64,000 bases of DNA from contig CAIRCM010000191.1 of NCBI GenBank assembly GCA_903877125.1, forward strand, positions 11,087 to 75,086, read 5' to 3'. Position 1 is the stretch's first letter; the number at the start of each line of letters is the position of its first letter. This document shows positions 22,759 to 64,000 of the stretch, piece after piece. This stretch comes from an uncultured Acetobacteraceae bacterium. GTDB lineage: Bacteria > Pseudomonadota > Alphaproteobacteria > Acetobacterales > Acetobacteraceae. The notes below the pieces were generated by a model. It was not told the origin of the DNA. It saw only the letters and a list, made by a program, of their open reading frames with translations, and did no database searches. The position numbers and the translations under genes were made by a program.

Positions 22759-22928
22759 CCTCATCGACGTCGGGTTCAGCCCACTCGGGATCGCCCTGCT
22801 CACGGTTTCGTGCATTACAGGTTTGCAATCCGCACGCGGCTTGTGTATGGCCCAACCACGCCCTGGCCGAATCATGAACGAGCCAATGGGGGGAGTGAGG
22901 CCGTAACGCCGAGAAGGTTTAAATACTC

Positions 22929-24674
22929 ATGAGTATGTCGATGTCCAACGCTGGTCCCGCCCGTCCCATGACGGGCGATGAGAAGAAGGTCATTTTCGCC
23001 TCTTCGCTCGGTACCGTCTTTGAGTGGTACGACTTCTACCTCTACGGTTCCTTGGCCGCCATCATCGGTGCCAAGTTCTTCAGCCAATTCCCCGAAGGCA
23101 CGCGGAATATCTTCGCGCTGCTCGCCTTCGCGGCGGGCTTCCTGGTGCGGCCCTTCGGCGCGCTGGTGTTCGGCCGCCTGGGCGACTTGATCGGACGCAA
23201 ATATACCTTCCTGGTGACCATCACGATCATGGGTCTGTCGACCTTCGTCGTGGGCGTGCTGCCGACCTCTGACCAGATCGGGGTCGCCGCGCCAATCATT
23301 CTGATTTCGCTGCGCCTGCTCCAGGGCTTGGCGCTCGGTGGCGAGTATGGCGGTGCCGCGACCTATGTCGCCGAGCACGCACCTGCGAACCGCCGCGGGT
23401 TTTATACGAGCTGGATCCAAACCACGGCGACGCTGGGCCTGTTCGTCTCTCTGGCCGTGATCATCAGCACGCAATCGATCATGGGGGCCGACAATTTCGC
23501 AGGTACCGCGAAAGCCACGTCATCCATCGCTGGCTGGCGTATTCCTTTCCTGGTTTCGATCATCCTGCTGGCGGTGTCTGTCTGGATCCGGACGAAATTG
23601 TCGGAGAGCCCGGCATTTCTGCGCATGAAGGCTGAAGGCACCCACTCCAAGGCCCCGTTGACCGAAGCGTTTGGCCAATGGCCAAACGCAAAGGTCGCGA
23701 TCATCGCTTTGCTCGGCCTCGTCGCCGGTCAGGCCGTGGTTTGGTACTCCGGGCAGTTCTTCGCGCTGTTCTTCCTCATCTCCGCGGTAAAGGTCGACGC
23801 CTTCACCGCCAATCTGCTCATCGCCTGGGGCCTGCTCTTCGGCACCGGCGGCTTCCTGATTTTCGGCTGGCTGTCCGATAAAACCGGCCGCAAGCCAATC
23901 ATCCTCGGCGGTTGCGCGATCGCCGCGATCTCTTATTTTTATGTGTTCCAGCTGATGGCCGAAGTCGCCAATCCGGCCCTTGCTCACGCGCAGGAGACGG
24001 TTCAGGCGAGCGTGATCGCCGATCCCGCCGAATGCTCATTCCAGTTCAACCCGGTCGGCACGGCGAAGTTCACAACCGGATGCGACAAGGCGAAGCAATC
24101 CTTGACCTCGAATTCGGTCGTCTACAGCCAGAAGGACGCCCCCGCCGGAACCCCGGCCAGTGTTCAGATTGGTGACAAGACCTTCGTTGTGACCTCGGCG
24201 ACGTTCGCGGCGGATGTGACGGCGGCGGTCATCGCGGCCGGGTACCCCGCCGCGACAGCCAACACTTCGATCGTGAAAGTGACCGGGGTGTTCGACGTGT
24301 TCCGCGCCCAGCCGTTCAAGGTGATCCTGATCATCACCTTCCTGATGGTCCTGGTCACGATGGTCTACGGCCCAATGGCGGCGGCGCTTGTCGAGTTGTT
24401 CCCGACCCGCATCCGCTACACCTCCATGTCGCTGCCGTACCATATCGGCAACGGCTGGTTTGGCGGCCTGCTGCCGGCAACGGTTCTGGCGATGAACGCG
24501 CAGCATGGCAGCATCACCTACGGACTCTGGTATCCGGTCGTCATCGCGGCCGGCACCGCGGTCATCGGCCTGCTGTTCGTGCCTGAAACCAAGGATCGCG
24601 ACATCTACGCTGGCGATTCGTCGATCCACAAAGGTGATCATGTGGTCGCGCTCGACCCGATGGCAGTGGACTGA
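22929..24674 (+). CDS. MFS transporter, metabolite:H+ symporter (MHS) family
   Basis: SLGTVFEWYDFYLYG, GRLGDLIGRK, RLLQGLALGGEYGGAA and ELFPTRIRY; extra periplasmic loop insertion. Confidence 0.92.
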   Translation: MSMSMSNAGPARPMTGDEKKVIFASSLGTVFEWYDFYLYGSLAAIIGAKFFSQFPEGTRNIFALLAFAAGFLVRPFGALVFGRLGDLIGRKYTFLVTITIMGLSTFVVGVLPTSDQIGVAAPIILISLRLLQGLALGGEYGGAATYVAEHAPANRRGFYTSWIQTTATLGLFVSLAVIISTQSIMGADNFAGTAKATSSIAGWRIPFLVSIILLAVSVWIRTKLSESPAFLRMKAEGTHSKAPLTEAFGQWPNAKVAIIALLGLVAGQAVVWYSGQFFALFFLISAVKVDAFTANLLIAWGLLFGTGGFLIFGWLSDKTGRKPIILGGCAIAAISYFYVFQLMAEVANPALAHAQETVQASVIADPAECSFQFNPVGTAKFTTGCDKAKQSLTSNSVVYSQKDAPAGTPASVQIGDKTFVVTSATFAADVTAAVIAAGYPAATANTSIVKVTGVFDVFRAQPFKVILIITFLMVLVTMVYGPMAAALVELFPTRIRYTSMSLPYHIGNGWFGGLLPATVLAMNAQHGSITYGLWYPVVIAAGTAVIGLLFVPETKDRDIYAGDSSIHKGDHVVALDPMAVD

Positions 24675-27436: not shown

Positions 27437-29322
27437 GCCGCTGTCGCCAACTGGCTCGGCGCCAGTTGCTCCAGCCAACGGTCCCACGCAGCCTGCCCCT
27501 CACCCGAAAGATCGAGGTGCAGGCGGAGCAGATCGCCCTCGTTCGCGACCATGGTGAACGCCATCGGATTGATCCCCCGAATATGCAGAGTGCCTTTTTC
27601 GCCGCTTTGTAACGATGATGAATCCAGCCGGATCAGCGCTGCCCCCTGTCGAGACACGTTCCGTGTTTCCGCCCGTATACGCTGTCGATCCGTTATGATC
27701 TCGCAAGGCATGCGACAGTCGATGCGTGGCGATTCCCGCCGGTCGAACTGGGTGGTCGAACCACGAATGGTGCGCACCACCACTTGCTGCAACGCACGTA
27801 CCTGATCCCCCACCTGGATCGATGCGTCGTTGACCAGAGTAGCCACCGTGCCCGCGTCGCGCGCGATATCGTGGACCCCGCTGATTTCCCGGGCCACCAG
27901 ACGCGTCGCGCCCGTCAGATCGGACAGGCTGGCCGCGATCTCGCGCGTCGCCCGGTCCTGATGGGATACATGGTCGGAAACCACCCGAGCCACATCCTCG
28001 GCCTCGGTCAGGCGTAAGCCGACCCCGGCAATGGCCTGCTGTGTCAGACCAACCAAATCCTGCACCTCCGCCAGGATGGAGGCGATGTCGGTCGTCGAGC
28101 GTGCCGTTTGTGCGGCCAGGCTTTTCACCTCGCTGGCCACCACCGCGAAGCCTTTGCCAGCCTCTCCAGCCCGTGCGGCCTCGATCGTGGCGTTCAGTGC
28201 CAACAGATTGGTCTGCCGGGCGATCGACCCGATGATCCCCGCGGCCTCGGCAATGCGGTTGGCCGCCGCCGTCAACCGGCCGATGGCACTGGTGGCGTCG
28301 CTGCCCGCCGACACGGCACGACGGGTGATGTCGGTCGATTGCGTGACGCTGACCGCGATCACCCGCATCGAGTCAGCGATGCGTTCCGCGACCCCAACGG
28401 CGGTTTCGCTGTCGCCCAGCGCGCTGTCCGCCTGCGTGCGGACGATGTCCGACGTCTGGAGCAGACGTTCCACCTGATCGGCCAAAGTCTTCGCCTGGAT
28501 CGACATATCCGCCATCCGCGACGCAGCCGTCTCCACCGCCTGTCCGATTTCGTGTTCGACGCGATCGGCCATGATCCGCAACGCCTCCGTCATTTGGCGC
28601 TTGGCTTTGGCGTCGTTCGCACGCTCCTGTTCCCGCATCGCTGCGATTTCATCCAAATTGCCGGCGATGGCGTTCTGCATCGTGCCAAGCGCCCGCAGCA
28701 GGCGCGCCGGCTCGTCCCGCCCCCGCGCTCGGATCGGGTTATCGAGCCTGCCACCGGCAATCGCGTCGGCGATGGCGGCGGCCTGCCGGATCGGCGGTAT
28801 CACCGCGCGCCACAAGACCAGCCCAATGCATGCCACAACGCCAATCACCGCGACGTCGATGCCACGTAGCCAGTCCCGGCTGGTATCGACCATGTCCTCC
28901 GCCGCGTCCCGGGCGTCGAGGCCGTCGGCGTCGAAGCGCTTCACCGCGGCGGCCAGCGCCTCGTCGACCGCGGTTCGCTGTTCGGTCGTGGCGGCACTTC
29001 CGGCGGCGCGCAAGGCCTGAAGCCGCCCGGCCACGGTGTCCGCTGCCGCCCGGGCCCGGTCGCTCGCCGCTCGCTCGCGTGCGATGCCCAGATAGTCCCG
29101 AACCTTGTCGAGCAGCGCCGCATTCTTTTCGGGAGCGAATTCGTAACGGATAAAATCGGCCTGTGCCTTGGCGATATGGCTCACCCCCACCACTCCGCTG
29201 TCGTATATGCCGATCGCGGTAGCGCCCAGGTTTCGTTGTAGCTGCCAGGCGAAGACTCCGCCGCAGGCGGGCGCGAGGATCAACACAAGGCAGGCCACCA
29301 GCAATTTCGTCTTCAAGCTCAT
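27433..29322 (-). CDS. Methyl-accepting chemotaxis protein with HAMP and C-terminal PilZ domain
   Basis: Two TMs around a periplasmic helical domain, HAMP, MCP core [34 protein letters not shown], and PilZ motifs RRESPR and NVSRQGA. Confidence 0.92.
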
Positions 29323-29331
29323 GGCAGTGGC

Positions 29332-29652
29332 CTACTTCACGACGACGGTCATTTTCATTTTCGGATGGATACTGCAGCGGATGGTGAATTTTCCCGCTTT
29401 GTCGAACAGCTGATCGATCGTATCCCCCGGCTTCTGGAGGCCTTTGTCGATCGCGTTCTCGTCCGCGTCGATCACGTTGATATTGTGGGTGACGTCGTCG
29501 TGGTTGACGAAATGCACCGTGTCGCCGGCGCCGACCGCCAACGCTGTTTGGCTGAATTTTTGCCCGACCTGATCGACTTCGCTCGCGGCGGCGAAACAGA
29601 CTCCGCCAGCCAAAAGCAAAGTGGCCGGCGTCACGATCCAGATATTTCGCAT
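29332..29652 (-). CDS. Periplasmic cupredoxin (amicyanin/plastocyanin-like, type-1 copper)
   Basis: Signal peptide, HNI and RCSIHPKM (Cys, His, Met ligands); AAGGAG RBS. Confidence 0.88.
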   Translation of the reverse strand: MRNIWIVTPATLLLAGGVCFAAASEVDQVGQKFSQTALAVGAGDTVHFVNHDDVTHNINVIDADENAIDKGLQKPGDTIDQLFDKAGKFTIRCSIHPKMKMTVVVK

Positions 29653-29676
29653 TGGGTTGTACTCCTTGTTTTGTTA

Positions 29677-31014
29677 TTAGAAACGAAACGCTGTCCAAAG
29701 GCTGACGAACAGCGCATTGTTGTCCGACGCATGGTTGCTGGAGCCGTTGAACTGCGTGTAGGCGACGTATTGAACCGCCAGACGGATGTTCCCCGACTTC
29801 CAGGTGGAATCCGGTTTGCCCCAGGGAACGAACGCGATCTCGCCGATGAAGCCGGCACTGTTGGGCACCGGGGCGGGCAGCCCGAAATACTGCGGATTCG
29901 CCACCCCCGATGTCTGAAAATACTGTACCGACGGGGTCCAGGTCGCGCCGATGCTGTACGAAACGTCCGCACGAACGGTATCGAGATTGCCGTTCCGGTT
30001 CGCCCCAATCAAAACATTGCTGGCCGACAGACGCTGGTCTTCGTGGATCCAGGTTGCATGCGCCGAGATCACGTCGCTCTCGACGCGCTTGGTATCGAAT
30101 ATCAATTGATAATTCGCGTCGAACGCAATGTCCGTGAAGCTGTCGGTGCGGCCTGCGCTCCCGTCGCCGCCAGGATACAGGCTCACATGCAGACCGTAGG
30201 TCCCAATCTGGACATTCTGCCGATCCCCGTCGAAGCTTCGTTGCAGCGCCAAACGCCAATAGGGGATCGGCCCTACCGGCGTGTTGCTCCCGGCCAGCGG
30301 CACCTGACCTATATCGTTGCGGGTATCGCGGCTCAGCCCCCCATAAAGCGCGACATGCAGATAGAACATGTCATCCAGCAGGGTATAGGCGCCCGCCCCG
30401 GCCACATTATGGGCCAGCGCGCCGTCGATCAGCGTCGCGGCCAGCGGTGTCGGCGCCAGCTTGCTGCTGTTATAGGGAAACCCCCAGATCGGCGTAGAAT
30501 TCCATAAATCCTCGACCGTCGGCGCATTGTTGACAGTGACTCCCCAGACCAGATCGTGGTCCCAGAGAGTCCCGTCCTTCGCATAGCGGATATCCGCGTT
30601 GTCCAGCCCCGCCGTCCGTGAGACCCCGTCATAGGTAATCTGGATGAACGAACCGAGGTTCGGCGCCCACCGTCCAGCTAGATAGATCGACCCTTGATCG
30701 AGCGCCGGATTGTCGTTCGCCGCGAACCAGCGCGCCGCGCCGCCGGGTTGCGCGGCATTGGTGTGGGTGAACGAGGTCTGGATCGTCGCGGCGATTGGCG
30801 GGCCATGCGGTTTGCCGTCGGTCGACGCATAACCATAAAGCTTGAAATCCCGCCCGAAGGGCTTCAGTTGCGGCCCGAACGCGCCGACATGGCAGGCGGC
30901 GCAGGGTTGCCCGGTCTGGTCCGCGAAACTCGGCACCGCGCCCGCGTCGCCGACCGTGCCGCACAGCAATGCGATGGCGGCGCAGACAGCTGTCAGCGAT
31001 TGGGAAACCCTCAT
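29677..31014 (-). CDS. Cyc2-like outer-membrane monoheme cytochrome c fused to a beta-barrel porin
   Basis: Signal peptide, then VPSFADQTGQPCAACH..PQLKPFGRDFKLYGY (one CxxCH), amphipathic beta-strand-rich remainder, terminal aromatic residues (WTAFRF); GAGGAG RBS. Confidence 0.8.
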   Translation of the reverse strand: MRVSQSLTAVCAAIALLCGTVGDAGAVPSFADQTGQPCAACHVGAFGPQLKPFGRDFKLYGYASTDGKPHGPPIAATIQTSFTHTNAAQPGGAARWFAANDNPALDQGSIYLAGRWAPNLGSFIQITYDGVSRTAGLDNADIRYAKDGTLWDHDLVWGVTVNNAPTVEDLWNSTPIWGFPYNSSKLAPTPLAATLIDGALAHNVAGAGAYTLLDDMFYLHVALYGGLSRDTRNDIGQVPLAGSNTPVGPIPYWRLALQRSFDGDRQNVQIGTYGLHVSLYPGGDGSAGRTDSFTDIAFDANYQLIFDTKRVESDVISAHATWIHEDQRLSASNVLIGANRNGNLDTVRADVSYSIGATWTPSVQYFQTSGVANPQYFGLPAPVPNSAGFIGEIAFVPWGKPDSTWKSGNIRLAVQYVAYTQFNGSSNHASDNNALFVSLWTAFRF

Positions 31015-53197: not shown

Positions 53198-54166
53198 CTA
53201 CCGCAAATGACAAGCCACCAACCGCCCCGCCCCAACATCCCGCAACACCGGGGCCTCGCTTCGGCAGCGCGCCTCCGCATACGGACACCGAGGATGAAAA
53301 TGGCACCCGCTCGGCGGATCGATCGGACTCGGCACGTCCCCCTCGACACGATGCTTGACCCGCTTCAACGCGGGATCCGGTAACGGGACCGCCGCCAGCA
53401 GCGCCTCCGTATACGGATGCAGCGGCTTGGCGAACAACGCCACCTTGTCGGCATATTCGACGATCCGCCCGAGATACATCACCGCCACCCGATGCGCGAT
53501 GTGCTCCACCACAGCGAGATTGTGCGAGATGAACAGGTACGACAGCCCCCGCTCCCGCTGCAGATCCATCAGCAGGTTGATCACCTGCGCCTGGATCGAC
53601 ACATCCAGCGCCGACACCGGCTCGTCCGCCACGATGAACCCAGGGTCCAGCGCCAAGGCCCGCGCGATCGACACACGCTGCCGCTGCCCGCCAGAGAATT
53701 GGTGCGGGTAATTGTTCATCTGCGCCGCACGCAAACCCACGCGCTCGAACAGTTGCGCCACTCGAGCCTCCCGCTCGTCGCGACGCCCGACGCCATGAAC
53801 CTTCAGTGGCTCGCCCACGATATCGCCGGCTTTGATCCGCGGATTGAGCGAGGAAAATGGATCCTGAAACACGATCTGCATCTGCCGCCGCAGCGCGCGC
53901 ATCTCCTGCTTGCTGGCGGTCGTGATGTCCTTGCCGTTGATCGCAATCGTCCCGGCCGACGGCTCGATCAAACGTAGCACCGCCCGCCCCACCGTCGACT
54001 TCCCGCAGCCGCTCTCCCCCACGAGCCCCAGCGTTTCACCGCCGGCGATGCTGAAACTGACCCCGTCGACCGCGCGCACATCGCCCACCCGCCGATTCAG
54101 CAGCCCCCGACGGATCGGGAAAAACTTGCGCAGGCCAGCGACCGCGATGACCGGGGGTTTGTCCAT
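53198..54166 (-). CDS. Peptide ABC transporter ATP-binding subunit (OppF-like)
   Basis: [22 protein letters not shown] and GCHFHPRCP. Start trimmed to MDKPPVI. Confidence 0.93.
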
Positions 54167-54174
54167 GATCTTCT

Positions 54175-55158
54175 CTATGCCTGCCAACAGGCGGCGAAAT
54201 GGTTGGCCTGCTTCGCTTCGAATGGCGGGATTTGCGCATGGCATTTCGCATCCGCCTGGGCGCAGCGCGGCGCGAAGGCACAGCCGGGCGGCAGATCGCT
54301 CAATGCCGGCACCATCCCTGGGATTTCCCGCAACCGCTCATCCGGCGACAACGCCAGCCCGCGCGCACTGCCAAGCCGGGGAATCGAGCCTAGCAGACCA
54401 CGCAGATAAGGGTGCAGAGGCCGGGCAAAAAGGTCCGAGACACTGCCTTCCTCGACCTTCCGTCCGGCATACATCACGACCACGCGCTGCGCCGTCTCGG
54501 CGACGACACCCAGATCGTGGGTGATCAGCAGCACGGCGGTGCCGAACTCGCGTTGCAGGTCGCCGATCAGATCGAGGATCTGCGCCTGGATCGTCACATC
54601 CAGTGCCGTGGTCGGCTCGTCCGCCACCAGCACCTTGGGCTTGCACGCCAGCGCCATCGCGATCATCGCCCGCTGCCGCATGCCCCCGGACATCTGATGC
54701 GGATATTCCTTTGCCCGTCGTGCCGGTTCCGGAATGCGCACCATCTGCAGCATCTCCACCGCGCGGTTTTTCGCCGCCGCCTTCGGCAAACCATCGTGCA
54801 GCATGACCATCTCGGCGATCTGCTTGCCCACCGTCATCAGCGGGTTCAGGGCCGTCATCGGCTCCTGGAAGATCATCGCGATCTTGCCGCCGCGCATTTG
54901 GCGCATCGTCCGATCGTCCAGTCGTAGCAGATCGGTCCCGTCCACCTTCACGCTGCCCGACACGATCTCCCCCGGCGGTTGCGGGATCAGGCGCATCAGC
55001 GACAAGGCGGTGATCGTCTTGCCGCAGCCGGACTCACCCACGATCGCCAGCGTCTCCCCGGCTTCGACGCTGAACGACACGTCCTGCACCGCCCGCACCA
55101 GCCCGCGCCGCGTGTGGAACACCGTATTGAGGCCGGAGACTTCAAGAACCGGTGCCAT
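54175..55158 (-). CDS. Peptide ABC transporter ATP-binding subunit (OppD-like)
   Basis: [22 protein letters not shown] and GCAFAPRC. Start trimmed to MAPVLEV. Confidence 0.93.
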
Positions 55159-55991
55159 CAGTCGCGCTGCCGTGGATCGAGGGCATCGCGCAGCGCGTCG
55201 CCCATCAGGTTGGAGCCGAAAACGATCAGGCTGATCGCGAGGCCAGGATAGATCACCAGCCATGGCGCGGTGCGCACGTACTCGGCGGCGGATTCCGACA
55301 GCATGCGGCCCCAGGATGGATAGGGTTCCGGGACACCCAGACCCAGGAAAGACAGCGACGCCTCGGTCAGGATGGTCGACCCAAGCTGTGCTGTGGCCAG
55401 CACGATCAGCGGCGCGAGCGTGTTGGGCAGCACATGCACGATGGCCACCCGCCACTCGCTCATGCCGGTGGCCCTGGCGGCCTCCACGAACGGCAGTTCC
55501 CGCAGCGACAGCACGTTGGAACGGATCACCCGCGCTACCGTGGGGATCAGCGGGATGGCAATGGCGATAATGGTGTTCCGCAGCGACGGGCCAAGGGAAG
55601 CGGTGATCACCAGCGCCATGACAAGAAGCGGCAGGGCCTGCATGATTTCCGTCACCCGCTGCACCAGCAGGTCGAACCACCCGCCGACATAGCCGCAAGC
55701 CAGCCCGACCGCCGCGCCGACCCCGCTGCCGATCATCGTGGCCCCCAGCGCGACCGCCAACGACACCCGCGCCCCATGGATCAGCCGGCTCAGCACATCC
55801 CGCCCCATCATGTCCGCCCCCATCCAATACACCCCGCTCGGTCCCGCGAGCGAAGCCTTGGCGTTGGTGGTGAATGGGTCGAGCGGCGCGACCACGCCGG
55901 CGAATATCGCGGCCAGCACGAACAGCGTCATGATGATCGCGCCGGCCACACCCAGGGGGTAACGTCGCGCGTAGTAGCCGATGTCGCTCAT
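55158..55991 (-). CDS. Peptide ABC transporter permease (OppC-like)
   Basis: WMGADMMGRDVLSRLIHGARVSL, FVEAARATG and LSFLGLG. Start trimmed to MSDIGYY. Confidence 0.92.
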   Translation of the reverse strand: MSDIGYYARRYPLGVAGAIIMTLFVLAAIFAGVVAPLDPFTTNAKASLAGPSGVYWMGADMMGRDVLSRLIHGARVSLAVALGATMIGSGVGAAVGLACGYVGGWFDLLVQRVTEIMQALPLLVMALVITASLGPSLRNTIIAIAIPLIPTVARVIRSNVLSLRELPFVEAARATGMSEWRVAIVHVLPNTLAPLIVLATAQLGSTILTEASLSFLGLGVPEPYPSWGRMLSESAAEYVRTAPWLVIYPGLAISLIVFGSNLMGDALRDALDPRQRD

Positions 55992-56935
55992 GCGCCCAGC
56001 CGGATGCGGGGATCGACGACCATGTAGAGCAGGTCGACGATCAGGTTGACGGTAACGACGACGATGGCGATGAACATCACCAGATTCTGCACCATCGGAT
56101 AATCCCGCCAGCGTATCGCCTCGACCAGAAAGCGCGCGACGCCGGGGATGTTGAAGACCGTTTCCGTCACGATCAGCCCGCCGAACAGGAACGCGGTCTC
56201 GACCCCGATGGTCGTGATCACCGGCAGCACCGCGTTGCGCAGGGCATGATCGTAAGTCACGGCTGTATCCGACAGGCCCTTGGATTTCGCGGTGCGCACG
56301 AAATCCTGGCGCAGCACCTCCAGCATCGACGACCGGGTCAGCCGCATGATCAACGCCGAACTGCGAAATCCGACGGACGCCGCCGGGATCGCGAGCATGG
56401 CGAGCCAGGCGCCGAACGTTGCCGGTGCCCGATCGTAGATCGGAATGCTGCCGAACCATTTCACGCAGGCCATCAGGATCAGCAGTCCCAGCCAGAAGGC
56501 TGGCATCGACAAGCCGCTGAGGCTGAGGATGCGCAGAAAGTAATCCAGCTTGGTGTTTTGCCGTACCGCGCTGATCACCCCCAACGGCACCCCCGCGCAA
56601 ATGGCGAACGTCAATGCCAAACCGGCCAACCGCGCGGTAATCGGAATGCGCGGCAGGATTTCCTCGATCACCGGCTTTTCGGACACGTAGGAATAGCCGA
56701 GGTCGCCGTGGAACAACCCGCTCAGCCAATGCCAGTACTGCACCGGCAACGGCAGATCGAGGCCAAGATCGGTCACGATTTTCGCCTTCTCCGCCGGGTC
56801 GATCATCCCAGCGGAATCTAACAGGATATCGGCGATGTTACCCGGAACGATCCGCAGCAGCAGAAAGATGGCGATGGACACGCCGAGCAGCGTCACCACC
56901 ATCAATAACAACCGGCGGATCAGGTAGGCCAGCAT
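55988..56935 (-). CDS. Peptide ABC transporter permease (OppB-like)
   Basis: FVRTAKSKGL, HALRNAVLP and IVTETVFNIPG. Confidence 0.93.
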   Translation of the reverse strand: MLAYLIRRLLLMVVTLLGVSIAIFLLLRIVPGNIADILLDSAGMIDPAEKAKIVTDLGLDLPLPVQYWHWLSGLFHGDLGYSYVSEKPVIEEILPRIPITARLAGLALTFAICAGVPLGVISAVRQNTKLDYFLRILSLSGLSMPAFWLGLLILMACVKWFGSIPIYDRAPATFGAWLAMLAIPAASVGFRSSALIMRLTRSSMLEVLRQDFVRTAKSKGLSDTAVTYDHALRNAVLPVITTIGVETAFLFGGLIVTETVFNIPGVARFLVEAIRWRDYPMVQNLVMFIAIVVVTVNLIVDLLYMVVDPRIRLGA

Positions 56936-56938
56936 CGA

Positions 56939-58534
56939 TCAGCGATCCAGCCACACGTCGTCGAAGCGCCAGTGGTTGTAGATGCTGTTGACCGCAAGAT
57001 GCAGCCCTTTGACCGCCGGCCACCAGCAGGTGCCGCCCTGCGACTGATAGACGACCGGACGCGCGCCATCTTCCTGCAAGGTGCGGTCGATCTGCCAGAC
57101 GAGTTGCTGGCGTGCCGCGAAATCCTTCATCTGGGACTGCTTGTGGAACAGTGCCTCCAGATACCTGTTGCAGTATCCGGTATAGTTCCGTTCGGAATTG
57201 CAGGTGTAGTTTTCGAAGAACATGACATCGGGGTCGTCGATTCCGGTGCCCTGTACGTTCATGCCAACGGCGTAATCCTTCTTCAACAGCCGCGCATACC
57301 AGACCGCGGAATCGAGAGTTTCAAGCTCGGCCTGGATGTATACATTCTTGATGTGGTCGATCAGCAGCACCGCCGCGTCGCGATAATCCGGAATGTTCCG
57401 GGTGGTGACTTTCAGCGTCAGCGGCTTGTCCGGGCCGTAGCCCAGTTCCCGCATGATCCGGCGGCCTTCCTCCCGGCTTTTTTCCACATCCGAGCCGTAT
57501 CCCGGGACCGTCTCCATGAATGCCTTGGACCAGCCCCAGATCCCCTCGGGCGGGGCCAGCATCGCGCCGCCGATATTGTCGACGCCATGGCTCAGAATGT
57601 CGGAAAACGCCTTGCGGTCGATCGCCAGCGCCAGCGCCTTGCGAATTTGCGGATTGTCGAAGGGGGGGCGGTCGCGATTGATCAGCAGATTGCCCTCGGT
57701 ATTCGACGGCTGCACCAGACACTGCATCGTCGGCACCGCCTTCAACACGTCCTTCACCAGTTCCGGGGTCAGCTCCCCGGTGATGTTCATGTCGAATTTG
57801 CCGGCTTCCAGGGCCAGAACGGCCGTGGAACGGTTGGGGATGATCGTATACTCGATGCCGTCCAGGTACGGCCGGCCGGGCTTCCAGTAGTCGGGATTGC
57901 GTTCCAGCTTGATGGACTCATTCTGTTGGAACGACACAAACCGGAATGGGCCTGTCCCGATCGGATGCGTGCGCATCTGCGCCGCCGGGACGTGGCACGG
58001 GTAGACCGGCGAAAAACCGCCGGCCAACATCACCAGGAACGACGGTTGCGGATCGTTCAAATGAAACGTCACCTGCGTGGGGCTGTCGACCACGATGTCC
58101 TTGATGTTGAACCACCAGCTCTTGCGCGGGTTTTTGCGCATCTTGCCGTCGACCTTGCCGCTGACGACGTCCCAGGTGCACTTGACGTCCGCGGCCGTGA
58201 ACGGCTTGCCGTCGTGCCACTTCACCCCCTCGCGCAGTTGAAACGTCAACGTCCGGTCGTCGTCGCTGTATTTCCACGACGTCGCCAGCTCCGGCACCAC
58301 CGCTTCCAGCCGGTTCTGCTTCGCCGCGGGATCGAACATCACGAGGTTGTTGAACACCGCCATGAACGGCATGTCGGTGGAAATCGTCGCTTCCTCATGG
58401 ATCGAGGCGCTGGGCGGATTGTCCCGGTGGGTGATCCGCAGCACGCCACCCTGCTTCTGCGCCTGCGCCCCGCCCGTCGCCAATAACAAGGCGCAGACGC
58501 CGGCGGCGAAGAGCCGTATCCATTTATGCGACAT
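56939..58534 (-). CDS. ABC transporter substrate-binding protein, family 5
   Basis: Signal peptide, PELATSW, FQLREGVKWHDGKPFTAADV and PIGTGPF. Start trimmed to MSHKWIR. Confidence 0.93.
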   Translation of the reverse strand: MSHKWIRLFAAGVCALLLATGGAQAQKQGGVLRITHRDNPPSASIHEEATISTDMPFMAVFNNLVMFDPAAKQNRLEAVVPELATSWKYSDDDRTLTFQLREGVKWHDGKPFTAADVKCTWDVVSGKVDGKMRKNPRKSWWFNIKDIVVDSPTQVTFHLNDPQPSFLVMLAGGFSPVYPCHVPAAQMRTHPIGTGPFRFVSFQQNESIKLERNPDYWKPGRPYLDGIEYTIIPNRSTAVLALEAGKFDMNITGELTPELVKDVLKAVPTMQCLVQPSNTEGNLLINRDRPPFDNPQIRKALALAIDRKAFSDILSHGVDNIGGAMLAPPEGIWGWSKAFMETVPGYGSDVEKSREEGRRIMRELGYGPDKPLTLKVTTRNIPDYRDAAVLLIDHIKNVYIQAELETLDSAVWYARLLKKDYAVGMNVQGTGIDDPDVMFFENYTCNSERNYTGYCNRYLEALFHKQSQMKDFAARQQLVWQIDRTLQEDGARPVVYQSQGGTCWWPAVKGLHLAVNSIYNHWRFDDVWLDR

Positions 58535-58601: not shown

Positions 58602-59747
58602 CTAGCGCTTGGCCGCGCGCAGCCCCGCCCGCAGCCGCTCCATCGCCCGCGCCATCCGGTCCGGCTGGTTGGCGAAACACACCCGCAAACTGCCCTCGCC
58701 ACTCGGCCCGAACGCGACGCCCGGTGCCACCGCGACACCGTGGTTGCGCACCAGATCAAGCGCCAAGCCCAGACTGTCGGTCAGACCATCGATCCCAATG
58801 AACGCGTAAAATGCCCCCGGCGGCGGCGCGTAGCGCACACCGTTCAACCCGCTCAACGCCTCCGACGCCACCTGTCGCCCAATCTCGCAATGCCTGCGGA
58901 TGTCCGCCACCACGCTGGTATCCCGGATCGCGGCAATCCCAGCCCGCTGCACGAACGGTGCGACCCCGGAAAACACCGCTTCCACGATATCGGCGATCGT
59001 GTCCCGCATCCCCTCAGGCACCACCAGCCAGCCCAGCCGCCACCCGGTCATCACCCAGGCCTTCGAGAAACTGTTGCACACCATCACCCGATCCCCGGGT
59101 TCCGCGACATCCAGCATCGAAGGCGCCGCGGCTCGGTCATCGTAAATCAGCCGCGAGTAGACCTCGTCCGACACCACCCAGACCCCATGTCGCCGTGCGA
59201 TGTCCAATATCGCCCGCAGTTCCTCCGTGCGCGCGGTCCAACCCGTCGGATTGTTTGGCGAATTCAGCACGAACACCCGAGCCCCCCGGAGCATCTGGTC
59301 GAGCCGGTCGAGATCGAGGCGAAACCCATCGGAAGCCGGGATCAAGTCGATGGTCTCCACCACCGCCCCGCGCAGATGTGCCGCGTTGGCGATGTTCGGC
59401 CAAAGCGGCCCATGGATCACCACCCGCTGCCCCGCCGAGACCAGCGTGTTCATCGCGATGGTGACAGCCGCCATGCCCGACGCCGTCACCTGGATGCGGC
59501 TTTCCGCCACCGGCGTGGCGTGCAACCCCGTGAGATACGCTGCGATGGTCTGGCGCAAGTCCGGCAGCCCGCGCACATCGGGATAATGCGTCTCCCCACC
59601 ATCGATGGCCGCCACCAATGCGTCGCGCGCGGGCAGGGGGCTCGGCCGGTCGGATTCCCCAAAACACAGGAAATCCACGTCGGGCGTGGCAAAGGCGAGC
59701 CGAGCGACTTCGACGATACGGGAGCCGGAGATGCTGACAATGTCCAT
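58602..59747 (-). CDS. PLP-dependent aminotransferase class I/II
   Basis: NSPNNPTGW, SDEVY and NSFSKAWVMTGWRLGW. Confidence 0.92.
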   Translation of the reverse strand: MDIVSISGSRIVEVARLAFATPDVDFLCFGESDRPSPLPARDALVAAIDGGETHYPDVRGLPDLRQTIAAYLTGLHATPVAESRIQVTASGMAAVTIAMNTLVSAGQRVVIHGPLWPNIANAAHLRGAVVETIDLIPASDGFRLDLDRLDQMLRGARVFVLNSPNNPTGWTARTEELRAILDIARRHGVWVVSDEVYSRLIYDDRAAAPSMLDVAEPGDRVMVCNSFSKAWVMTGWRLGWLVVPEGMRDTIADIVEAVFSGVAPFVQRAGIAAIRDTSVVADIRRHCEIGRQVASEALSGLNGVRYAPPPGAFYAFIGIDGLTDSLGLALDLVRNHGVAVAPGVAFGPSGEGSLRVCFANQPDRMARAMERLRAGLRAAKR

Positions 59748-59819: not shown

Positions 59820-60974
59820 ATGTTGATGAGTGCCGACCGCATCCTGGTCAGTCACGTCGGCAGCCTGCCGCGCCCTGCGCTGCTGACCGACCTGCTGATC
59901 CGCGGCGAAGCCGGCGAAACCATCGACCCAGCGGTCTTCGCCAAGGAAGTCGAGCACGCCACCGAACAGGCCATCGCCAGGCAGGTTGCCGCCGGCGTCG
60001 ATGTCGGTAACGATGGAGAACAGTCTCGCGTCGCCTTCCAGACCTACGTGCCCCGCTGCATGTGCGGATTCGGCGGCGAATCGAAACGCCCGCCCGCCCG
60101 CGATCAGCAGCAGTTCCCCAGCTACGTCCGACAGTCCGCCGCGCGCTTTCCGCATTCGGCCCGGGCGATGAACGCGCCCGCGGCGCTCGCCGAAGTGCGC
60201 TATGTCGATCGCAAACCGATCGACGAGGACGCCGCCCGCCTCAAGCGTCTGGGCACCGGTTTTCGGGAATGTTTCATGACGGCGCCATCGCCCGGCATCG
60301 TCGCCACCACGATGCTGAACCAGCATTACGACAGCCACGAGGCCTACGTCATGGCGCTGGCCAAGGCGCTGGCCAACGAATATCGCGCGATCCACGAGGC
60401 CGGACTGATCCTGCAGATCGACAGCCCCGACTTGGCGATGGAACGCCACCGCTTCTTCGATCATCTCACCGAGGCCGAATTCCTCGGCCAGCTCGAAATG
60501 CATATCGCCGCGATCAATCTGGGGCTGGAAGGCATCCCCCGCGACCGCGTCCGCCTGCATGTCTGCTGGGGCAACAACGATGGACCGCACCTCTACGACA
60601 TCCCGATGTCGACCATCCTGCCGGCATTGTACAAGGCCCATGTCGGCGCCCTGTCGATCGAATTCGCCAACCCCCGGCATCAGCACGAATACGCCGCGCT
60701 ACGGAACAATCCGCTGCCGCCGCATATGCTGCTGATGCCGGGCGTCCTGGATACGACAACCAACATCGTCGAACACCCCGAGCTGATTGCCCGCCGGCTG
60801 GAAGAAGCGGTTGCCGTGGTGGGCGACCGCGAACGGGTGATCGCCGGCACGGACTGTGGGTTCGGCACCTTCGCGGGCCGCGAATACGTGGCGGAGGAGG
60901 TCGTATGGGTAAAGCTCGCCGCGGCGGCTGAAGGCGCGCGTATCGCGTCGCGACGCCTGTGGGGGCGGCGCTGA
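59820..60974 (+). CDS. Second cobalamin-independent methionine synthase II family protein (MetE C-terminal domain only)
   Basis: SHVGSLPRP, NDGEQSR and Zn ligands LHVCWGN, SIEFAN, TDCGF. Confidence 0.87.
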   Translation: MLMSADRILVSHVGSLPRPALLTDLLIRGEAGETIDPAVFAKEVEHATEQAIARQVAAGVDVGNDGEQSRVAFQTYVPRCMCGFGGESKRPPARDQQQFPSYVRQSAARFPHSARAMNAPAALAEVRYVDRKPIDEDAARLKRLGTGFRECFMTAPSPGIVATTMLNQHYDSHEAYVMALAKALANEYRAIHEAGLILQIDSPDLAMERHRFFDHLTEAEFLGQLEMHIAAINLGLEGIPRDRVRLHVCWGNNDGPHLYDIPMSTILPALYKAHVGALSIEFANPRHQHEYAALRNNPLPPHMLLMPGVLDTTTNIVEHPELIARRLEEAVAVVGDRERVIAGTDCGFGTFAGREYVAEEVVWVKLAAAAEGARIASRRLWGRR

Positions 60975-61026: not shown

Positions 61027-61524
61027 CTAAGCGATGTAGGCGTCGTCGCGGCTGGGAATATTACGGGACGTTCCCATCAGGCGATACACCCCCCGCAGAC
61101 CGGAAATGCCAGCACCGAAGCCACCGGAGATGCCGACATCGCCGTTGAAATCAAAATAGGTGTCGGTCCCCTTCTGGGCCAGCATGTTGGTGACGCCGAC
61201 ATTGACGCCGACGCCAACGCCGGCATTGCCGATCGCGCCCTCGGCGCCATTCAGGTCCCATCCGTTGAATGCCATGCGGGCGGGAATATCGCACCAAACG
61301 TCAGGGACGAGGCCTGGCAGGGCGAAACTGCTAAGGTTCCCCCCCAACCCAAGCCCCAGTCCGGAGAACCGGAACCGCACGGATTCGGTGGTGCTGACGG
61401 TCGGGCTGTAGAAGTCCATCAGATAGACGCCCCCGGCGATAACCACGCCCGCGCCGATGCAGCCAATCATGCACAAACGCCAGTCCCGAGCCGGTGTCGC
61501 GTAGTTCACTGGACGCGCCTTCAC
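61027..61524 (-). CDS. Hypothetical Gly-rich protein
   Basis: 3' part of the 350-aa track ORF; start GTG 61524 or ATG 61470. Motifs GAGVVIAGG, FSGLGLGLGG and NAGVGVGVNVG. Confidence 0.55.
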   Translation of the reverse strand: MKARPVNYATPARDWRLCMIGCIGAGVVIAGGVYLMDFYSPTVSTTESVRFRFSGLGLGLGGNLSSFALPGLVPDVWCDIPARMAFNGWDLNGAEGAIGNAGVGVGVNVGVTNMLAQKGTDTYFDFNGDVGISGGFGAGISGLRGVYRLMGTSRNIPSRDDAYIA

Positions 61525-61535
61525 ATCTGATGGGT

Positions 61536-62660
61536 TCAGCTCACCCCAAACAAAGCCTTCGCATTGTTCAGGAACACCGCACGCCGCTGCTCCTCCGTCA
61601 TCTTGAACGGCAGCGCCTGCGCGGGATCGTCGAAATCCCAATGCGGGTAGTCGGTGGCGAACAGAATGCGGTCCCAGCCGATCCAGTCGAACACCTCGGC
61701 CAACTGAGTCCGAGGCTCCGGCTCCTCGATCGGTTGCGTCGTGAACCAGATGTTCGACCGCAGATACTCCGACGGCAACCGCTTCAGATGCGGCAGTTCC
61801 TGCTTCAGCTTTTTGTATTGCGCATCCATCCGCCAACCCAAAGCGGCGGCCCAGGCGACACCGCCCTCGATCATGACGAATTTCAGGTTCGGAAACCGTT
61901 CGAACACGCCTTCCAGGATCAGGCTGACCGTCAACGCCTGCTGCGCCTGCGCGTGCCCGACCATTTCCTCCAGATAATACGATCCCCAGCCGGACGACGT
62001 GATCGCATTCCCGCCATAGCCGAAGGCATGCACACCGATCGGCAGGTTCGCCGCTTCCGCGGCCGCGAAGATCGGCCAATACTGCTTCTGCCCCATCGGC
62101 GTCGCGGTGCGAGACAAGAAGAGAATCTGCGCGAAGTTCTTGTCCCCCGCTCGCAGTTCGATCTCCTTCACCGAAGCGGCGGCGTCCTCATACGGCACCA
62201 CAACCGAACCCCTGAGGCGGGAATCCTTCGAAGTCCACTCCGCTTTCTGCCACTCGTTGGTCGCATGCGCCAAGGCGGCCGACAGTTCCAAATTCATCGC
62301 CCCCTGACCCGCACCCAGCGGGTTCAGGATGCCGAGCGTCACATTATTCGGGTCAAGGTGCTGCTTGGCCATGAACTCCAGATCGCTCCCCGGCGTCTTC
62401 CCCGGCGGCCAACTGTCGATCCGCGAAGCGCTCGGCTGACCCTTCGGATATGCCGAACCTTTTTCCCAGGGCTGGCGGTAGGTCACCGCGAAATTCTCGC
62501 AATGATCCTGCCAGCGCTGCGACAAGTAGGGATAGAGCGACTTGCTCACCCCGCCGATGCCAGCACCGGCCGGGCGCGGGTGAATGTCGCAATCGGCGAT
62601 CGCCAGACGGGACTGGCCAGTCACCTCGGGGATCGGGCGGTTCAGGACGTCGACGGTCAT
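61536..62660 (-). CDS. Amidohydrolase-fold (Amidohydro_2) protein, subunit 2 of a pair
   Basis: ADCDIH, GVHAFG, YLEEMVGH, MIEGG and FATDYPHWD. Confidence 0.88.
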   Translation of the reverse strand: MTVDVLNRPIPEVTGQSRLAIADCDIHPRPAGAGIGGVSKSLYPYLSQRWQDHCENFAVTYRQPWEKGSAYPKGQPSASRIDSWPPGKTPGSDLEFMAKQHLDPNNVTLGILNPLGAGQGAMNLELSAALAHATNEWQKAEWTSKDSRLRGSVVVPYEDAAASVKEIELRAGDKNFAQILFLSRTATPMGQKQYWPIFAAAEAANLPIGVHAFGYGGNAITSSGWGSYYLEEMVGHAQAQQALTVSLILEGVFERFPNLKFVMIEGGVAWAAALGWRMDAQYKKLKQELPHLKRLPSEYLRSNIWFTTQPIEEPEPRTQLAEVFDWIGWDRILFATDYPHWDFDDPAQALPFKMTEEQRRAVFLNNAKALFGVS

Positions 62661-62661
62661 G

Positions 62662-63732
62662 TCAAGTCGCTCCCTTCATGTCGTTCAGCCGAGAATAGGT
62701 CCGCAGCGGGTTTTCCGCCATGATTTTCGCCGCCAGCACCGGGTCCAACCCCGCCGGCAACGCCGCGAGGCCGTCGAACTGCCAATGCGGATAGTCGGTC
62801 GAAAACAGCAGGAATTCGTCCGATCCCATATGTTCCATCAGCCGAGCGATGCCGCCGTCATCGGGCGGGGCGTCGAAGGGTTGCAGCGTCATGCGCACCC
62901 GGTCCCGCACGATCGAGGCCGGGGGATCGCTCACCCAGGGGATCTCGGCGCGCAAACCCTTCCAGAATTTCGTCAGCCGCCAGAGATAGGCCGGCAACCA
63001 GGAAACCCCTGACTCCATCAACACCACTGTCAAATCCGGGAACTTGGCGAACACGCCCTCCGACATCAGGCTGGTCAGCTGGGATTGGAAGCCCGGCGCC
63101 TGATTGACGTAATCCTCGGTAAAATACGACGGCCAGCCGACCGGCGTGACCGGATGCCGGTAGGTACTGCCGGCATGAATGCCGATCGGCAGCCCGTGTT
63201 TCTCCGCCGCCGCGTAGATCGGCCAGTTCTGCCGACGCCCGAGCGGGATTTCGCCGCCCACCAGCAGCAACACCTGCACGAAGCGCCGGTCCACGGCCAC
63301 ACGCTCGATCTCCTCGACCGCGCGTTCGGGGTTTTGCGTCGGCACGATGATCGAGGCTCGCAGCCGGTCGTCCTTGTCCAGCCACTCCCTGGCGATCCAG
63401 TCGTTGATCGCCTGGCAGAAGGCGGCGCCAAGGTCCTCGCTGAACAGCGCCTGCGCGCCGTACAAGCAGTTCAGAATCGCGAACCGAGACCCGAACGGAT
63501 CCAGCGCCTGTTTCGCCAGCGTCTCCACCGACGTACCCGCCTTCCCCGTCGCGTCCCGCCAGTCGGATCGGAACGTCAACGGGTTGACCGAGGGGTAGCT
63601 GATCGTGTTCAGCTCCTCGAAACCGCGCCGAATCACCGTGTCCCGCCACATCTCCGGCAAGTACGGCAGCAGCGCCGCCAGGCTGGGGACGGTGGGGTGA
63701 ACGTCGCAGTCTATCGCGGCGGGGAGGGTCAC
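62662..63732 (-). CDS. Amidohydrolase-fold (Amidohydro_2) protein, subunit 1 of a pair
   Basis: IDCDVH, GIHAG, LMESG and FSTDYPHWQ. GTG start overlaps the ferredoxin stop. Confidence 0.88.
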   Translation of the reverse strand: MTLPAAIDCDVHPTVPSLAALLPYLPEMWRDTVIRRGFEELNTISYPSVNPLTFRSDWRDATGKAGTSVETLAKQALDPFGSRFAILNCLYGAQALFSEDLGAAFCQAINDWIAREWLDKDDRLRASIIVPTQNPERAVEEIERVAVDRRFVQVLLLVGGEIPLGRRQNWPIYAAAEKHGLPIGIHAGSTYRHPVTPVGWPSYFTEDYVNQAPGFQSQLTSLMSEGVFAKFPDLTVVLMESGVSWLPAYLWRLTKFWKGLRAEIPWVSDPPASIVRDRVRMTLQPFDAPPDDGGIARLMEHMGSDEFLLFSTDYPHWQFDGLAALPAGLDPVLAAKIMAENPLRTYSRLNDMKGAT

Positions 63733-64000
63733 AGCTTGACCAGCAGGTCCTCGCCCTCGGCTTTGATCTGGTAGACTGCCAGATCGGTATCTGCCGGCGC
63801 GGACATCGCCTTGCCCGTGCGGATGTCGAACTGCGCCGCGTGCAGCGGGCATTCGATGCAGCCGTTTTCCATCCAGCCTTCGGTCAGCAGCGCGTATTCG
63901 TGCGTGCAAATGTTGTCAGTGGCGTGAAACTCGCCGCCCGGCAGGTGGAAGATCGCGACCTCCCGGCTGCCGACGCGCACGCCGAGGCACTTGCCTTCCG
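63729..64000 (-). CDS. Rieske-type [2Fe-2S] ferredoxin (5' end beyond the window)
   Basis: CTH-x16-CPLH ligands, DNICTHE and QFDIRTGKA. The frame is open to the window edge (EGKCLGVRVG...). Confidence 0.9.
   Translation of the reverse strand, partial: EGKCLGVRVGSREVAIFHLPGGEFHATDNICTHEYALLTEGWMENGCIECPLHAAQFDIRTGKAMSAPADTDLAVYQIKAEGEDLLVKL

Follow-up and report, generated by a model that had tools for sequence, protein, structure and literature searches.

What do two adjacent genes for amidohydrolase-fold proteins encode when they are preceded by a gene for a Rieske ferredoxin: a pair of hydrolases or an oxygenase? This question is raised by one end of a 64,000-nt stretch of DNA (the window; C191:11087-75086, C191 being contig CAIRCM010000191.1) from an uncultured Acetobacteraceae bacterium (assembly GCA_903877125.1; 5.15 Mb, 231 contigs), where three genes follow one another on the minus strand:

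63729..64043 (63729..64000 inside the window), minus strand: Rieske [2Fe-2S] ferredoxin, 104 amino acids (aa); PF00355, E 1.5e-17
62662..63732, minus strand: AibH1-like auxiliary (alpha') subunit, 356 aa; PF04909, E 4e-44
61536..62660, minus strand: AibH2-like catalytic (alpha) subunit, 374 aa; PF04909, E 2.4e-54

The upstream PF04909 gene encodes the H1-like protein P0001 and the downstream one the H2-like protein P0002. We conclude that the three genes very probably encode the oxygenase and ferredoxin components of an AibH1H2-type multicomponent monooxygenase, a heteromeric member of the amidohydrolase-related dinuclear oxygenases (AROs). AibH1H2/AibG/AibF itself is the three-component 2-aminoisobutyrate (Aib) monooxygenase of Rhodococcus wratislaviensis C31-06 (PDB 6M1W, 8FUL-8FUO; PMC7782822, PMC10401708). 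An earlier note on this DNA had proposed an architecture of the AibH1H2/AibG type, with two amidohydrolase-fold subunits and a Rieske ferredoxin, and sequence, fold, phylogeny, metal ligands and synteny all agree with that proposal.

The layout of the three genes is tight. The ferredoxin ATG lies at window-equivalent position 64043 (C191:75129), 43 nt past the window edge, which leaves the last 90 codons inside the window (full reading frame, L005 2816-3130). Its stop codon TGA (63729-63731) shares the tetranucleotide GTGA (63732-63729) with the GTG start codon of P0001 (63732-63730), giving the 4-nt overlap reported in the earlier note, and this GTG start agrees with the N-terminus of AibH1. 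A single spacer base (62661), also as reported before, separates the stop codon of P0001 (62662-62664) from the ATG of P0002 (62660-62658), which has AAGGGAG in front. The ferredoxin/H1 junction is equally tight in relatives (L007 and L009 have an ATGA overlap, and in L006 the genes are 2 nt apart), and their H1 and H2 genes meet in an ATGA overlap. Upstream, the ferredoxin start carries an AAGGAG ribosome-binding site within the 227 nt of contig that are left. Manual inspection revealed a weak promoter-like TTGGCC-17-CAGAAT ahead of this AAGGAG-ATG, and promoter and terminator scans gave nothing exceeding background. The operon begins with the ferredoxin gene, which, judging by its sequence, is translationally coupled to H1.

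Each of the two PF04909 proteins found its own AibH counterpart as the best match among all PDB sequences: AibH1 for P0001 (6m1w_A/8ful_A; phmmer E 4.1e-89, 302 bits) and AibH2 for P0002 (6m1w_B; E 2e-84, 287 bits). The cross-matches were weaker (198 bits for P0001 with AibH2, 166 bits for P0002 with AibH1), the homomeric AROs 8SM6-8SM9 scored 167-228 bits with one or the other protein, and PtmU3 gave E values of about 1e-14 to 1e-20. Pairwise identities were 41% for P0001/AibH1, 42% for P0002/AibH2 and 38% for P0001/P0002. NCBIfam has no model for H1 or H2, and an exact-sequence look-up of P0002 returned no record. A maximum-likelihood tree built from 48 sequences placed P0001, along with every related upstream gene, with AibH1 (support 100/99) and P0002, along with every related downstream gene, with AibH2 (96/89); the H1 and H2 clades formed a joint group (98/97) that left out the homomeric AROs SfbO and 8SM7. 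The H1/H2 duplication thus predates the divergence of the actinobacterial and alphaproteobacterial systems. By this phylogeny, the pair in the window is orthologous to AibH1/AibH2 at the subunit level. The predicted folds point the same way: the two AlphaFold2 (AF2) models, built from alignments of 20-22 sequences, reached predicted local distance difference test (pLDDT) scores of 80.5 and 81.4 and predicted template modeling (pTM) scores of 0.84 and 0.86, and their top structural matches were AibH1 chains for H1 (template modeling (TM) score 0.88-0.90) and AibH2 chains for H2 (TM 0.86-0.88).

The metal sites distinguish the two subunits. In AibH2, the ligands are D25, H27, H211, E265, D337 and H340 (Hibi et al., PMC7782822), and D342 is a critical second-sphere residue (Powell et al., PMC10401708). 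All seven residues are present in P0002 with numbering identical to AibH2 in a gap-free HMMER alignment, and the alignment to AibH1, AibH2 and PtmU3 suggested in the earlier note placed the AibH subunits far closer than PtmU3. Among the relatives, the H2 ligands are invariant in 71-73 of 73 sequences, H211 and E265 being present in 73/73 and D342 in 72/73. AROs have been defined by an N-terminal DxH and a C-terminal DxPHx[D/E] motif (Liu et al. 2026, PMC13154177), both of which are lacking in all characterized hydrolases and decarboxylases of the fold (PMC13154177). P0002 carries the two motifs as D25-I26-H27 (model strand 21-26) and D337-Y-P-H340-W-D342. Across our synteny set of 83 related loci, counting only genes that show the motif, DxPHWD was found in 66 of 68 H2 genes. 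P0001 likewise has the DxH motif (D10-V11-H12), invariant among its relatives, and its D10, H12, H186, E240 and D313 are the counterparts of AibH1 D24, H26, H201, E255 and D328; these five mononuclear-site ligands and H316 are kept in 65-67 of 67 sequences. It departs from the ARO motif at the last position (D313-Y-P-H316-W-Q318), as does AibH1 (DYPHKH), and the residue found there in H1 genes showing the motif (n = 69) was Gln in 58, His in 10, Arg in one and Asp or Glu in none. By the motif definition, then, the sequence of H2 is that of an ARO and H1 is its non-ARO partner. The motifs that the earlier note had ascribed to both paralogues, DCD(V/I)H and TDYPHW, were indeed present (DCDVH and TDYPHWQ in H1, DCDIH and TDYPHWD in H2). 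K255 of P0001, kept in 65 of 67 H1 sequences, aligns with the AibH1 lysine that is reported to bond AibH2 D342 across the interface (PMC12141560).

How far do these data argue against ordinary enzymes of the fold? In that case both PF04909 proteins would be non-redox amidohydrolase-2 enzymes akin to ACMSD, LigW or gamma-resorcylate decarboxylase, with decarboxylase, hydratase or lactonase activity, and the neighboring Rieske gene would be unrelated to them. Pfam gives the generic PF04909 only, and the public labels of relatives read 'amidohydrolase family protein' or 'TIM-barrel metal-dependent hydrolase'. However, P0001 and P0002 matched decarboxylases and hydrolases among the PDB sequences with E values of 1e-5 to 1e-16, as opposed to 1e-84 to 1e-89 for the AibH subunits, and decarboxylases matched the AF2 models with TM scores of 0.6-0.75 (E 1e-12 to 1e-14), as opposed to 0.86-0.90 for the AibH chains. 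The clustering with decarboxylases or hydrolases and the loss of extra ligands that the earlier note had named as contrary evidence are thus not what we found, and H2 has the two motifs that characterized hydrolases and decarboxylases lack (PMC13154177). The 4-nt overlap of ferredoxin and H1 and the conserved synteny also speak against this explanation, which we consider exceedingly improbable.

The conserved ligands of H1 raise a second question, namely whether H1 could be a mononuclear-metal enzyme in its own right that acts on the hydroxylated product by hydrolysis, decarboxylation or retro-aldol cleavage, making the complex bifunctional. Characterized mononuclear PF04909 enzymes are catalytic, the five ligands and H316 are almost always kept, and the role of AibH1 has been termed 'elusive' (PMC10401708). 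The metal site of AibH1, however, is sterically occluded and its ligand mutants are insoluble (PMC10401708), so that a structural metal accounts for the ligand conservation in H1 equally well; a catalytic H1 therefore appears improbable to us. One catalytic and one structural subunit, as anticipated before our analysis, remains the better description of the pair, in which H2 keeps the ARO ligands and motifs and H1 loses the last carboxylate.

The earlier note had further pointed to an EE pair (YLEEMVGH) and a DYPHWD motif in the second protein only. Both are indeed confined to H2, but the reading of the EE pair, E231/E232, as an extra carboxylate ligand of the metals does not hold: that role falls to E265 and H340, and the carboxylate that serves as a ligand or in the second sphere is D342. 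E231 is common to P0002, AibH2 and SfbO. Position 232, which is acidic (Glu or Asp) in 69 of the 73 relatives, has Tyr in AibH2 and Met in SfbO; it adjoins the two arginines of SfbO, R232 and R235, that hold sulfate (PMC10811679). The EE segment falls within the H2 loop 214-233, modeled with low confidence, and aligns with this anion-binding R232/R235 stretch of SfbO. It is more likely that the segment belongs to the substrate pocket, where we read it as part of a mobile substrate lid.

Which metals would the H2 site hold? The predictor residues of P0002 are I26 (gamma1), N113 (gamma2), W341 (gamma4) and F343 (gamma5), with N113 lying at the end of model strand beta2 (107-112) and aligned to SfbO T108. 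A hydrophobic gamma1, a hydrophilic gamma2 and an aromatic gamma4 fit the 'Mn-dependent' row in Table 1 of PMC13154177, and we infer that P0002 belongs to the low-potential, Mn-preferring, Rieske-partnered class of AROs.

Comparison with the characterized systems places the locus more precisely. AibH1H2 resembles it in having adjacent PF04909 paralogues, H1 before H2, each orthologous to its counterpart, in the complete dinuclear ligand set of H2 next to a mononuclear set with the last carboxylate lost in H1, in the interface lysine, and in a Rieske ferredoxin in the same operon. SfbO (8SM6) and the orphan AROs 8SM7, 8SM8 and 8SM9 (PMC10811679) have the fold, the six ligands, DxH and DxPHWD in common with P0002, as well as aromatic gamma4 and gamma5 residues, an adjacent small Rieske ferredoxin and the acceptance of Mn, predicted or shown. 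They differ in being homotetramers without an H1-like partner and are 35-36% identical to the window protein; in addition, the Arg232/Arg235 with which SfbO holds an anionic group are replaced by M233/H236 in P0002, with E232 in front. The diiron high-potential AROs PtmU3 and DitZ (6OMP, 8UYR) belong to the same superfamily and have the ligand framework in common with P0002, but they are distant from the window proteins (E 1e-10 to 1e-20, TM about 0.7) and differ in their hydrophilic gamma1, non-aromatic gamma4, dependence on diiron and usual lack of a Rieske partner.

To what extent is the three-gene module conserved? An adjacent H1-then-H2 pair was present in 70 of the 83 related loci, and a small Rieske gene directly flanked the pair in 51 of these 70, indicating that the arrangement is not due to chance. 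Counted from alignment coordinates, the Rieske genes were distributed as follows:

12 of 70 loci: Rieske gene upstream, about 104-110 aa, as in the window
38 of 70 loci: Rieske gene directly downstream of H2, about 137 aa (aibH1-aibH2-aibG order)
1 of 70 loci: Rieske gene on both sides
2 of 70 loci: Rieske gene elsewhere within 10 kb
4 of 70 loci: flanks too short to tell
13 of 70 loci: no Rieske gene within 10 kb

At one locus with 72% identity (L008 8240-9928), the H1 position was called as a 562-aa product with HhH-GPD and Amidohydro_2 matches and with no Rieske gene nearby, which may be a gene-call artefact or a rearrangement.

The ferredoxin itself has the canonical motif C46-x-H48...C65-x-x-H68. 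Among solved structures, it comes closest to small ferredoxins that serve ring-hydroxylating dioxygenases (5bok, the naphthalene dioxygenase (NDO) ferredoxin 2qpz with E 2.5e-23, BphF, CarAc and TodB), low-potential proteins from the dioxygenase systems for naphthalene, biphenyl, carbazole and toluene. This relationship, together with the about nine large Rieske-domain proteins in the assembly, would be compatible with a ferredoxin that mainly serves another oxygenase, either a Rieske oxygenase or a P450 elsewhere in the genome, and is merely co-located with H1 and H2. Against this, the 75-kb contig carries no Rieske oxygenase and no Rieske domain other than that of this ferredoxin. The GTGA overlap and the order of ferredoxin, H1 and H2, which stays constant in close relatives although the outer flanks differ completely, argue in the same direction, and the pairing of Rieske proteins with low-potential AROs is documented (PMC10811679, PMC13154177). 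We therefore see only a very remote chance that the ferredoxin has its main partner elsewhere. Two other small Rieske proteins occur in the assembly: NirD and, on contig C58, a 137-aa protein whose gene comes right after a paralogous H1-H2 pair.

Taken as an AibH1H2-type monooxygenase, the system could operate as follows. A flavoprotein reductase encoded elsewhere would hand electrons from NAD(P)H to the Rieske ferredoxin, which would dock near the H2 surface loop D337-Y-P-H-W341-D342-F343 and reduce the two-metal site. This site would hold a Mn-containing (Mn/Fe) cofactor of the low-potential class, as predicted by the sequence criteria of PMC13154177, and in its reduced state would activate O2 and hydroxylate a C-H bond of a small molecule. 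The H1-like subunit, with one buried metal, would take no part in oxygenation and would hold H2 in an alpha2-alpha'2 complex. For the proteins of the window, we infer complex formation, metal identity and oxygenase activity from homology.

Several observations weigh against this reading. The metal prediction hinges on gamma2, which was placed by alignment, and model confidence is low in the H2 loop 214-233 that adjoins the active site. Unlike AibG, which has 169 aa and is encoded downstream, the window ferredoxin has 104 aa, is encoded upstream and is NDO/BphF-like, and for 13 of the 70 related pairs the 10 kb around them contain no Rieske gene. Neither an AibF-type flavin mononucleotide (FMN)/[2Fe-2S] reductase nor aib catabolic genes occur at the locus, AibD1/E/C/A/T/F, and with them the rest of the aib pathway, all being missing from the neighborhood. 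No reductase was found on the 75-kb contig, and a PF14759 search of the assembly gave one match, in a reductase/[2Fe-2S] ferredoxin/P450 operon on contig C200 (C200:3671-6517), a class I P450 system whose reductase is the only ferredoxin reductase of the Reductase_C type in the assembly.

The reductase that, according to the earlier note, might lie beyond the window edge is not there: the contig continues for 270 nt past the window (227 nt past the ferredoxin start), and in place of a reductase or regulator this end holds only a tRNA-Leu-like 5' fragment and a repeat. A PF00175 search of the assembly detected CysJ and, at C193:15273-16427, an orphan reductase of the FNR type that ends in a [2Fe-2S] domain. 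The C200 or the C193 enzyme could supply electrons to the ferredoxin, neither being assignable to this system. In two relatives (L010 and L018), a ferredoxin reductase with Pyr_redox_2 and Reductase_C domains is encoded divergently next to the ferredoxin gene, which shows the kind of reductase serving this clade and makes the three-component system complete there; the C200 enzyme, the single one of this kind in the present assembly, is 39% identical. As for the contig end (L005 3131-3357; C191:75130-75356), a 30-nt stretch is 93% identical to the 5' part of the tRNA-Leu(CAA) from contig C210 and is followed by a 115-nt repeat that matches C78:142-256, in reverse orientation, with 97% identity; neither ARAGORN nor Rfam made a call in this stub. 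Such an end may be the scar of an old integration or a small mobile repeat, and it accounts for the break in the assembly.

If the module is an oxygenase, what does it oxidize? The genes downstream of H2, at lower window coordinates, offer some guidance:

61027..61470, minus strand: glycine-rich open reading frame (ORF), 147 aa, hydrophobic N-terminus; coding-type GC content at third codon positions (GC3) of 0.77, no Pfam family
59820..60974, plus strand: MetE-like protein (Meth_synt_2 catalytic domain only), 384 aa; PF01717, E 3.4e-11
58602..59747, minus strand: pyridoxal phosphate (PLP)-dependent aminotransferase-fold enzyme, 381 aa; PF00155, E 1.2e-56
53198..58534, minus strand: Dpp/Opp-type ATP-binding cassette (ABC) importer (Pfam)
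56939-58534, minus strand: SBP_bac_5 binding protein (Pfam)
55988-56935 and 55158-55991, minus strand: two permeases (Pfam)
54175-55158 and 53198 to about 54180, minus strand: two ATPases (Pfam)

These neighbors and the alphaproteobacterial host set the locus apart from the aib cluster. The aminotransferase-fold enzyme scores 441 bits with NF004770, exceeding its cut-off; its second-best NCBIfam match, below cut-off, is the hydroxy-arginine enzyme GntC, and VioD also appears. Orthologues of this enzyme (64-67% identical) lie directly downstream of H2 in five related loci (L007, L010, L013, L017 and L018). In L102, where H2 is 91% identical, the order is ferredoxin-H1-H2-methyltransferase-PMT_2-aminotransferase, with an aminotransferase 76% identical to that of the window. 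Similarly, in L104 (H2 87% identical), ferredoxin, H1, H2, a methyltransferase, an SBP_bac_5-type binding protein, two permeases and an ATPase follow one another on one strand, and the transporter is 88-92% identical to that of the window. As both the aminotransferase and the importer recur with the module in the close clade, we take them to be its functional partners. This linkage is restricted to the close clade, and clustering of the neighboring genes of all 83 loci gave no family-wide partner besides H1, H2 and Rieske.

The genomic context thus suggests that the Dpp-type importer likely brings in the substrate. Because the aminotransferase-fold enzyme and the importer recur as neighbors, the substrate may be an amino compound taken up from outside, for example a derivative of an amino acid, a small peptide or an opine-like molecule, an assignment that we regard as plausible though short of probable. 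Going further, the ferredoxin-H1-H2 genes, the PLP enzyme and the importer might form an undescribed route in this Acetobacteraceae-like lineage: a compound of this kind, probably cationic, would undergo C-hydroxylation by a Mn/Fe oxygenase, after which PLP chemistry would act on the hydroxylated product, with catalysis by H1 possible; this scheme is speculative, and we hold it to be rather doubtful.

Could the substrate simply be Aib, the locus being a true orthologue of the 2-aminoisobutyrate hydroxylase? The subunit-level orthology to AibH1 and AibH2 would suit this explanation, as would the aminotransferase neighbor, which resembles an amino-acid catabolic context. However, identity to the AibH subunits is merely 41-42%, AibH1 and AibH2 branch outside the entire alphaproteobacterial group, the aib genes listed above are missing, and the pocket segment has E232/M233 where AibH2 has Y232/H233. 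Furthermore, the genome holds four H2-like and three H1-like genes, on contigs C191, C37, C58 and C167, which implies several different substrates. An Aib hydroxylase is highly unlikely on these grounds, and the substrate of the predicted monooxygenase is probably not 2-aminoisobutyrate.

Three more AibH-type systems of the genome are arranged differently. On C58 (12092-14610), H1 and H2 are followed by the 137-aa type of Rieske gene. On C37, H1 and H2 (22767-23789 and 29163-30254) lie on the same strand, split by a 5-kb operon for a branched-chain-type ABC transporter on the opposite strand. On C167 (78880-80756), a solo H2-like gene precedes a gene that, from its N-terminal sequence alone, was read as a LigB/DODA-like extradiol dioxygenase.

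The two remaining neighbors in the window are less closely tied to the module. The MetE-like gene runs toward the oxygenase operon and away from the divergent aminotransferase/ABC operon, from which it is separated by a 72-nt intergenic region. Its product scores far below every NCBIfam cut-off for methionine synthase, L010 has a homologue (45% identical) in the vicinity of the module, and membership of the pathway is possible. For the 147-aa ORF we detected 10 metagenomic homologues (45-91% identity) and no copy in any of the 83 related loci; it is probably a real gene outside the oxygenase module.

Different flanks are found in other members of the clade. In the closest relatives (H2 87-91% identical; L102 188-807 and 3482-5683, L103, L104 2485-3186), a class I S-adenosylmethionine (SAM) methyltransferase gene stands right after H2, some of them adding a gene for a PMT_2 membrane glycosyltransferase-like protein, and L102 also has a Gp49/helix-turn-helix (HTH) toxin-antitoxin-like pair upstream of the ferredoxin. 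A tblastn search of this assembly with the methyltransferase and PMT_2 proteins gave no match. In a sub-clade (L013 9939-11642, L017, L018 13889-15720), the module is followed by genes for the aminotransferase, an OprB porin, a short-chain dehydrogenase/reductase (SDR), an SBP_bac_5 protein, a TauD/TfdA-family dioxygenase and an FAA-hydrolase-family protein. Together they would make up a larger catabolic cluster, which the window lacks.

What does the locus add to the family? AROs are a recently recognized class of enzymes that hydroxylate strong C-H bonds, some of them via Mn/Fe, on a fold that annotation pipelines label 'amidohydrolase'. A Rieske 'guilt by association' rule has yielded 3,307 candidates (PMC10811679), and a motif-based census with a metal-preference predictor about 17,000 AROs (PMC13154177). 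Finding AROs by way of an adjacent Rieske gene is thus already published (PMC10811679, PMC13154177), and the locus is a further member of the published family that establishes no new principle. According to a review, AibH2 homologues do not always have an H1 partner (PMC12141560). Beyond the cited literature, our comparison of loci makes three modest additions: an H1-type partner with a Gln/His signature is nearly universal in the AibH2 clade (70/83 loci), two small types of Rieske protein are encoded at opposite ends of the pair, and the ferredoxin reductase linked in some relatives is of the glutathione-reductase type and not of the AibF type.

The locus is a clean example for re-annotation. 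In the alphaproteobacterial AibH2 clade, the catalytic subunit is as a rule accompanied by an AibH1-type auxiliary subunit in which Gln or His replaces Asp, and the published ARO motif leaves out such partner subunits by construction. Of the roughly 17,000 predicted AROs, very few have a known natural substrate, and this locus, which offers a binding protein of its own, a PLP enzyme and a genome with several paralogous systems, is tractable for finding another.

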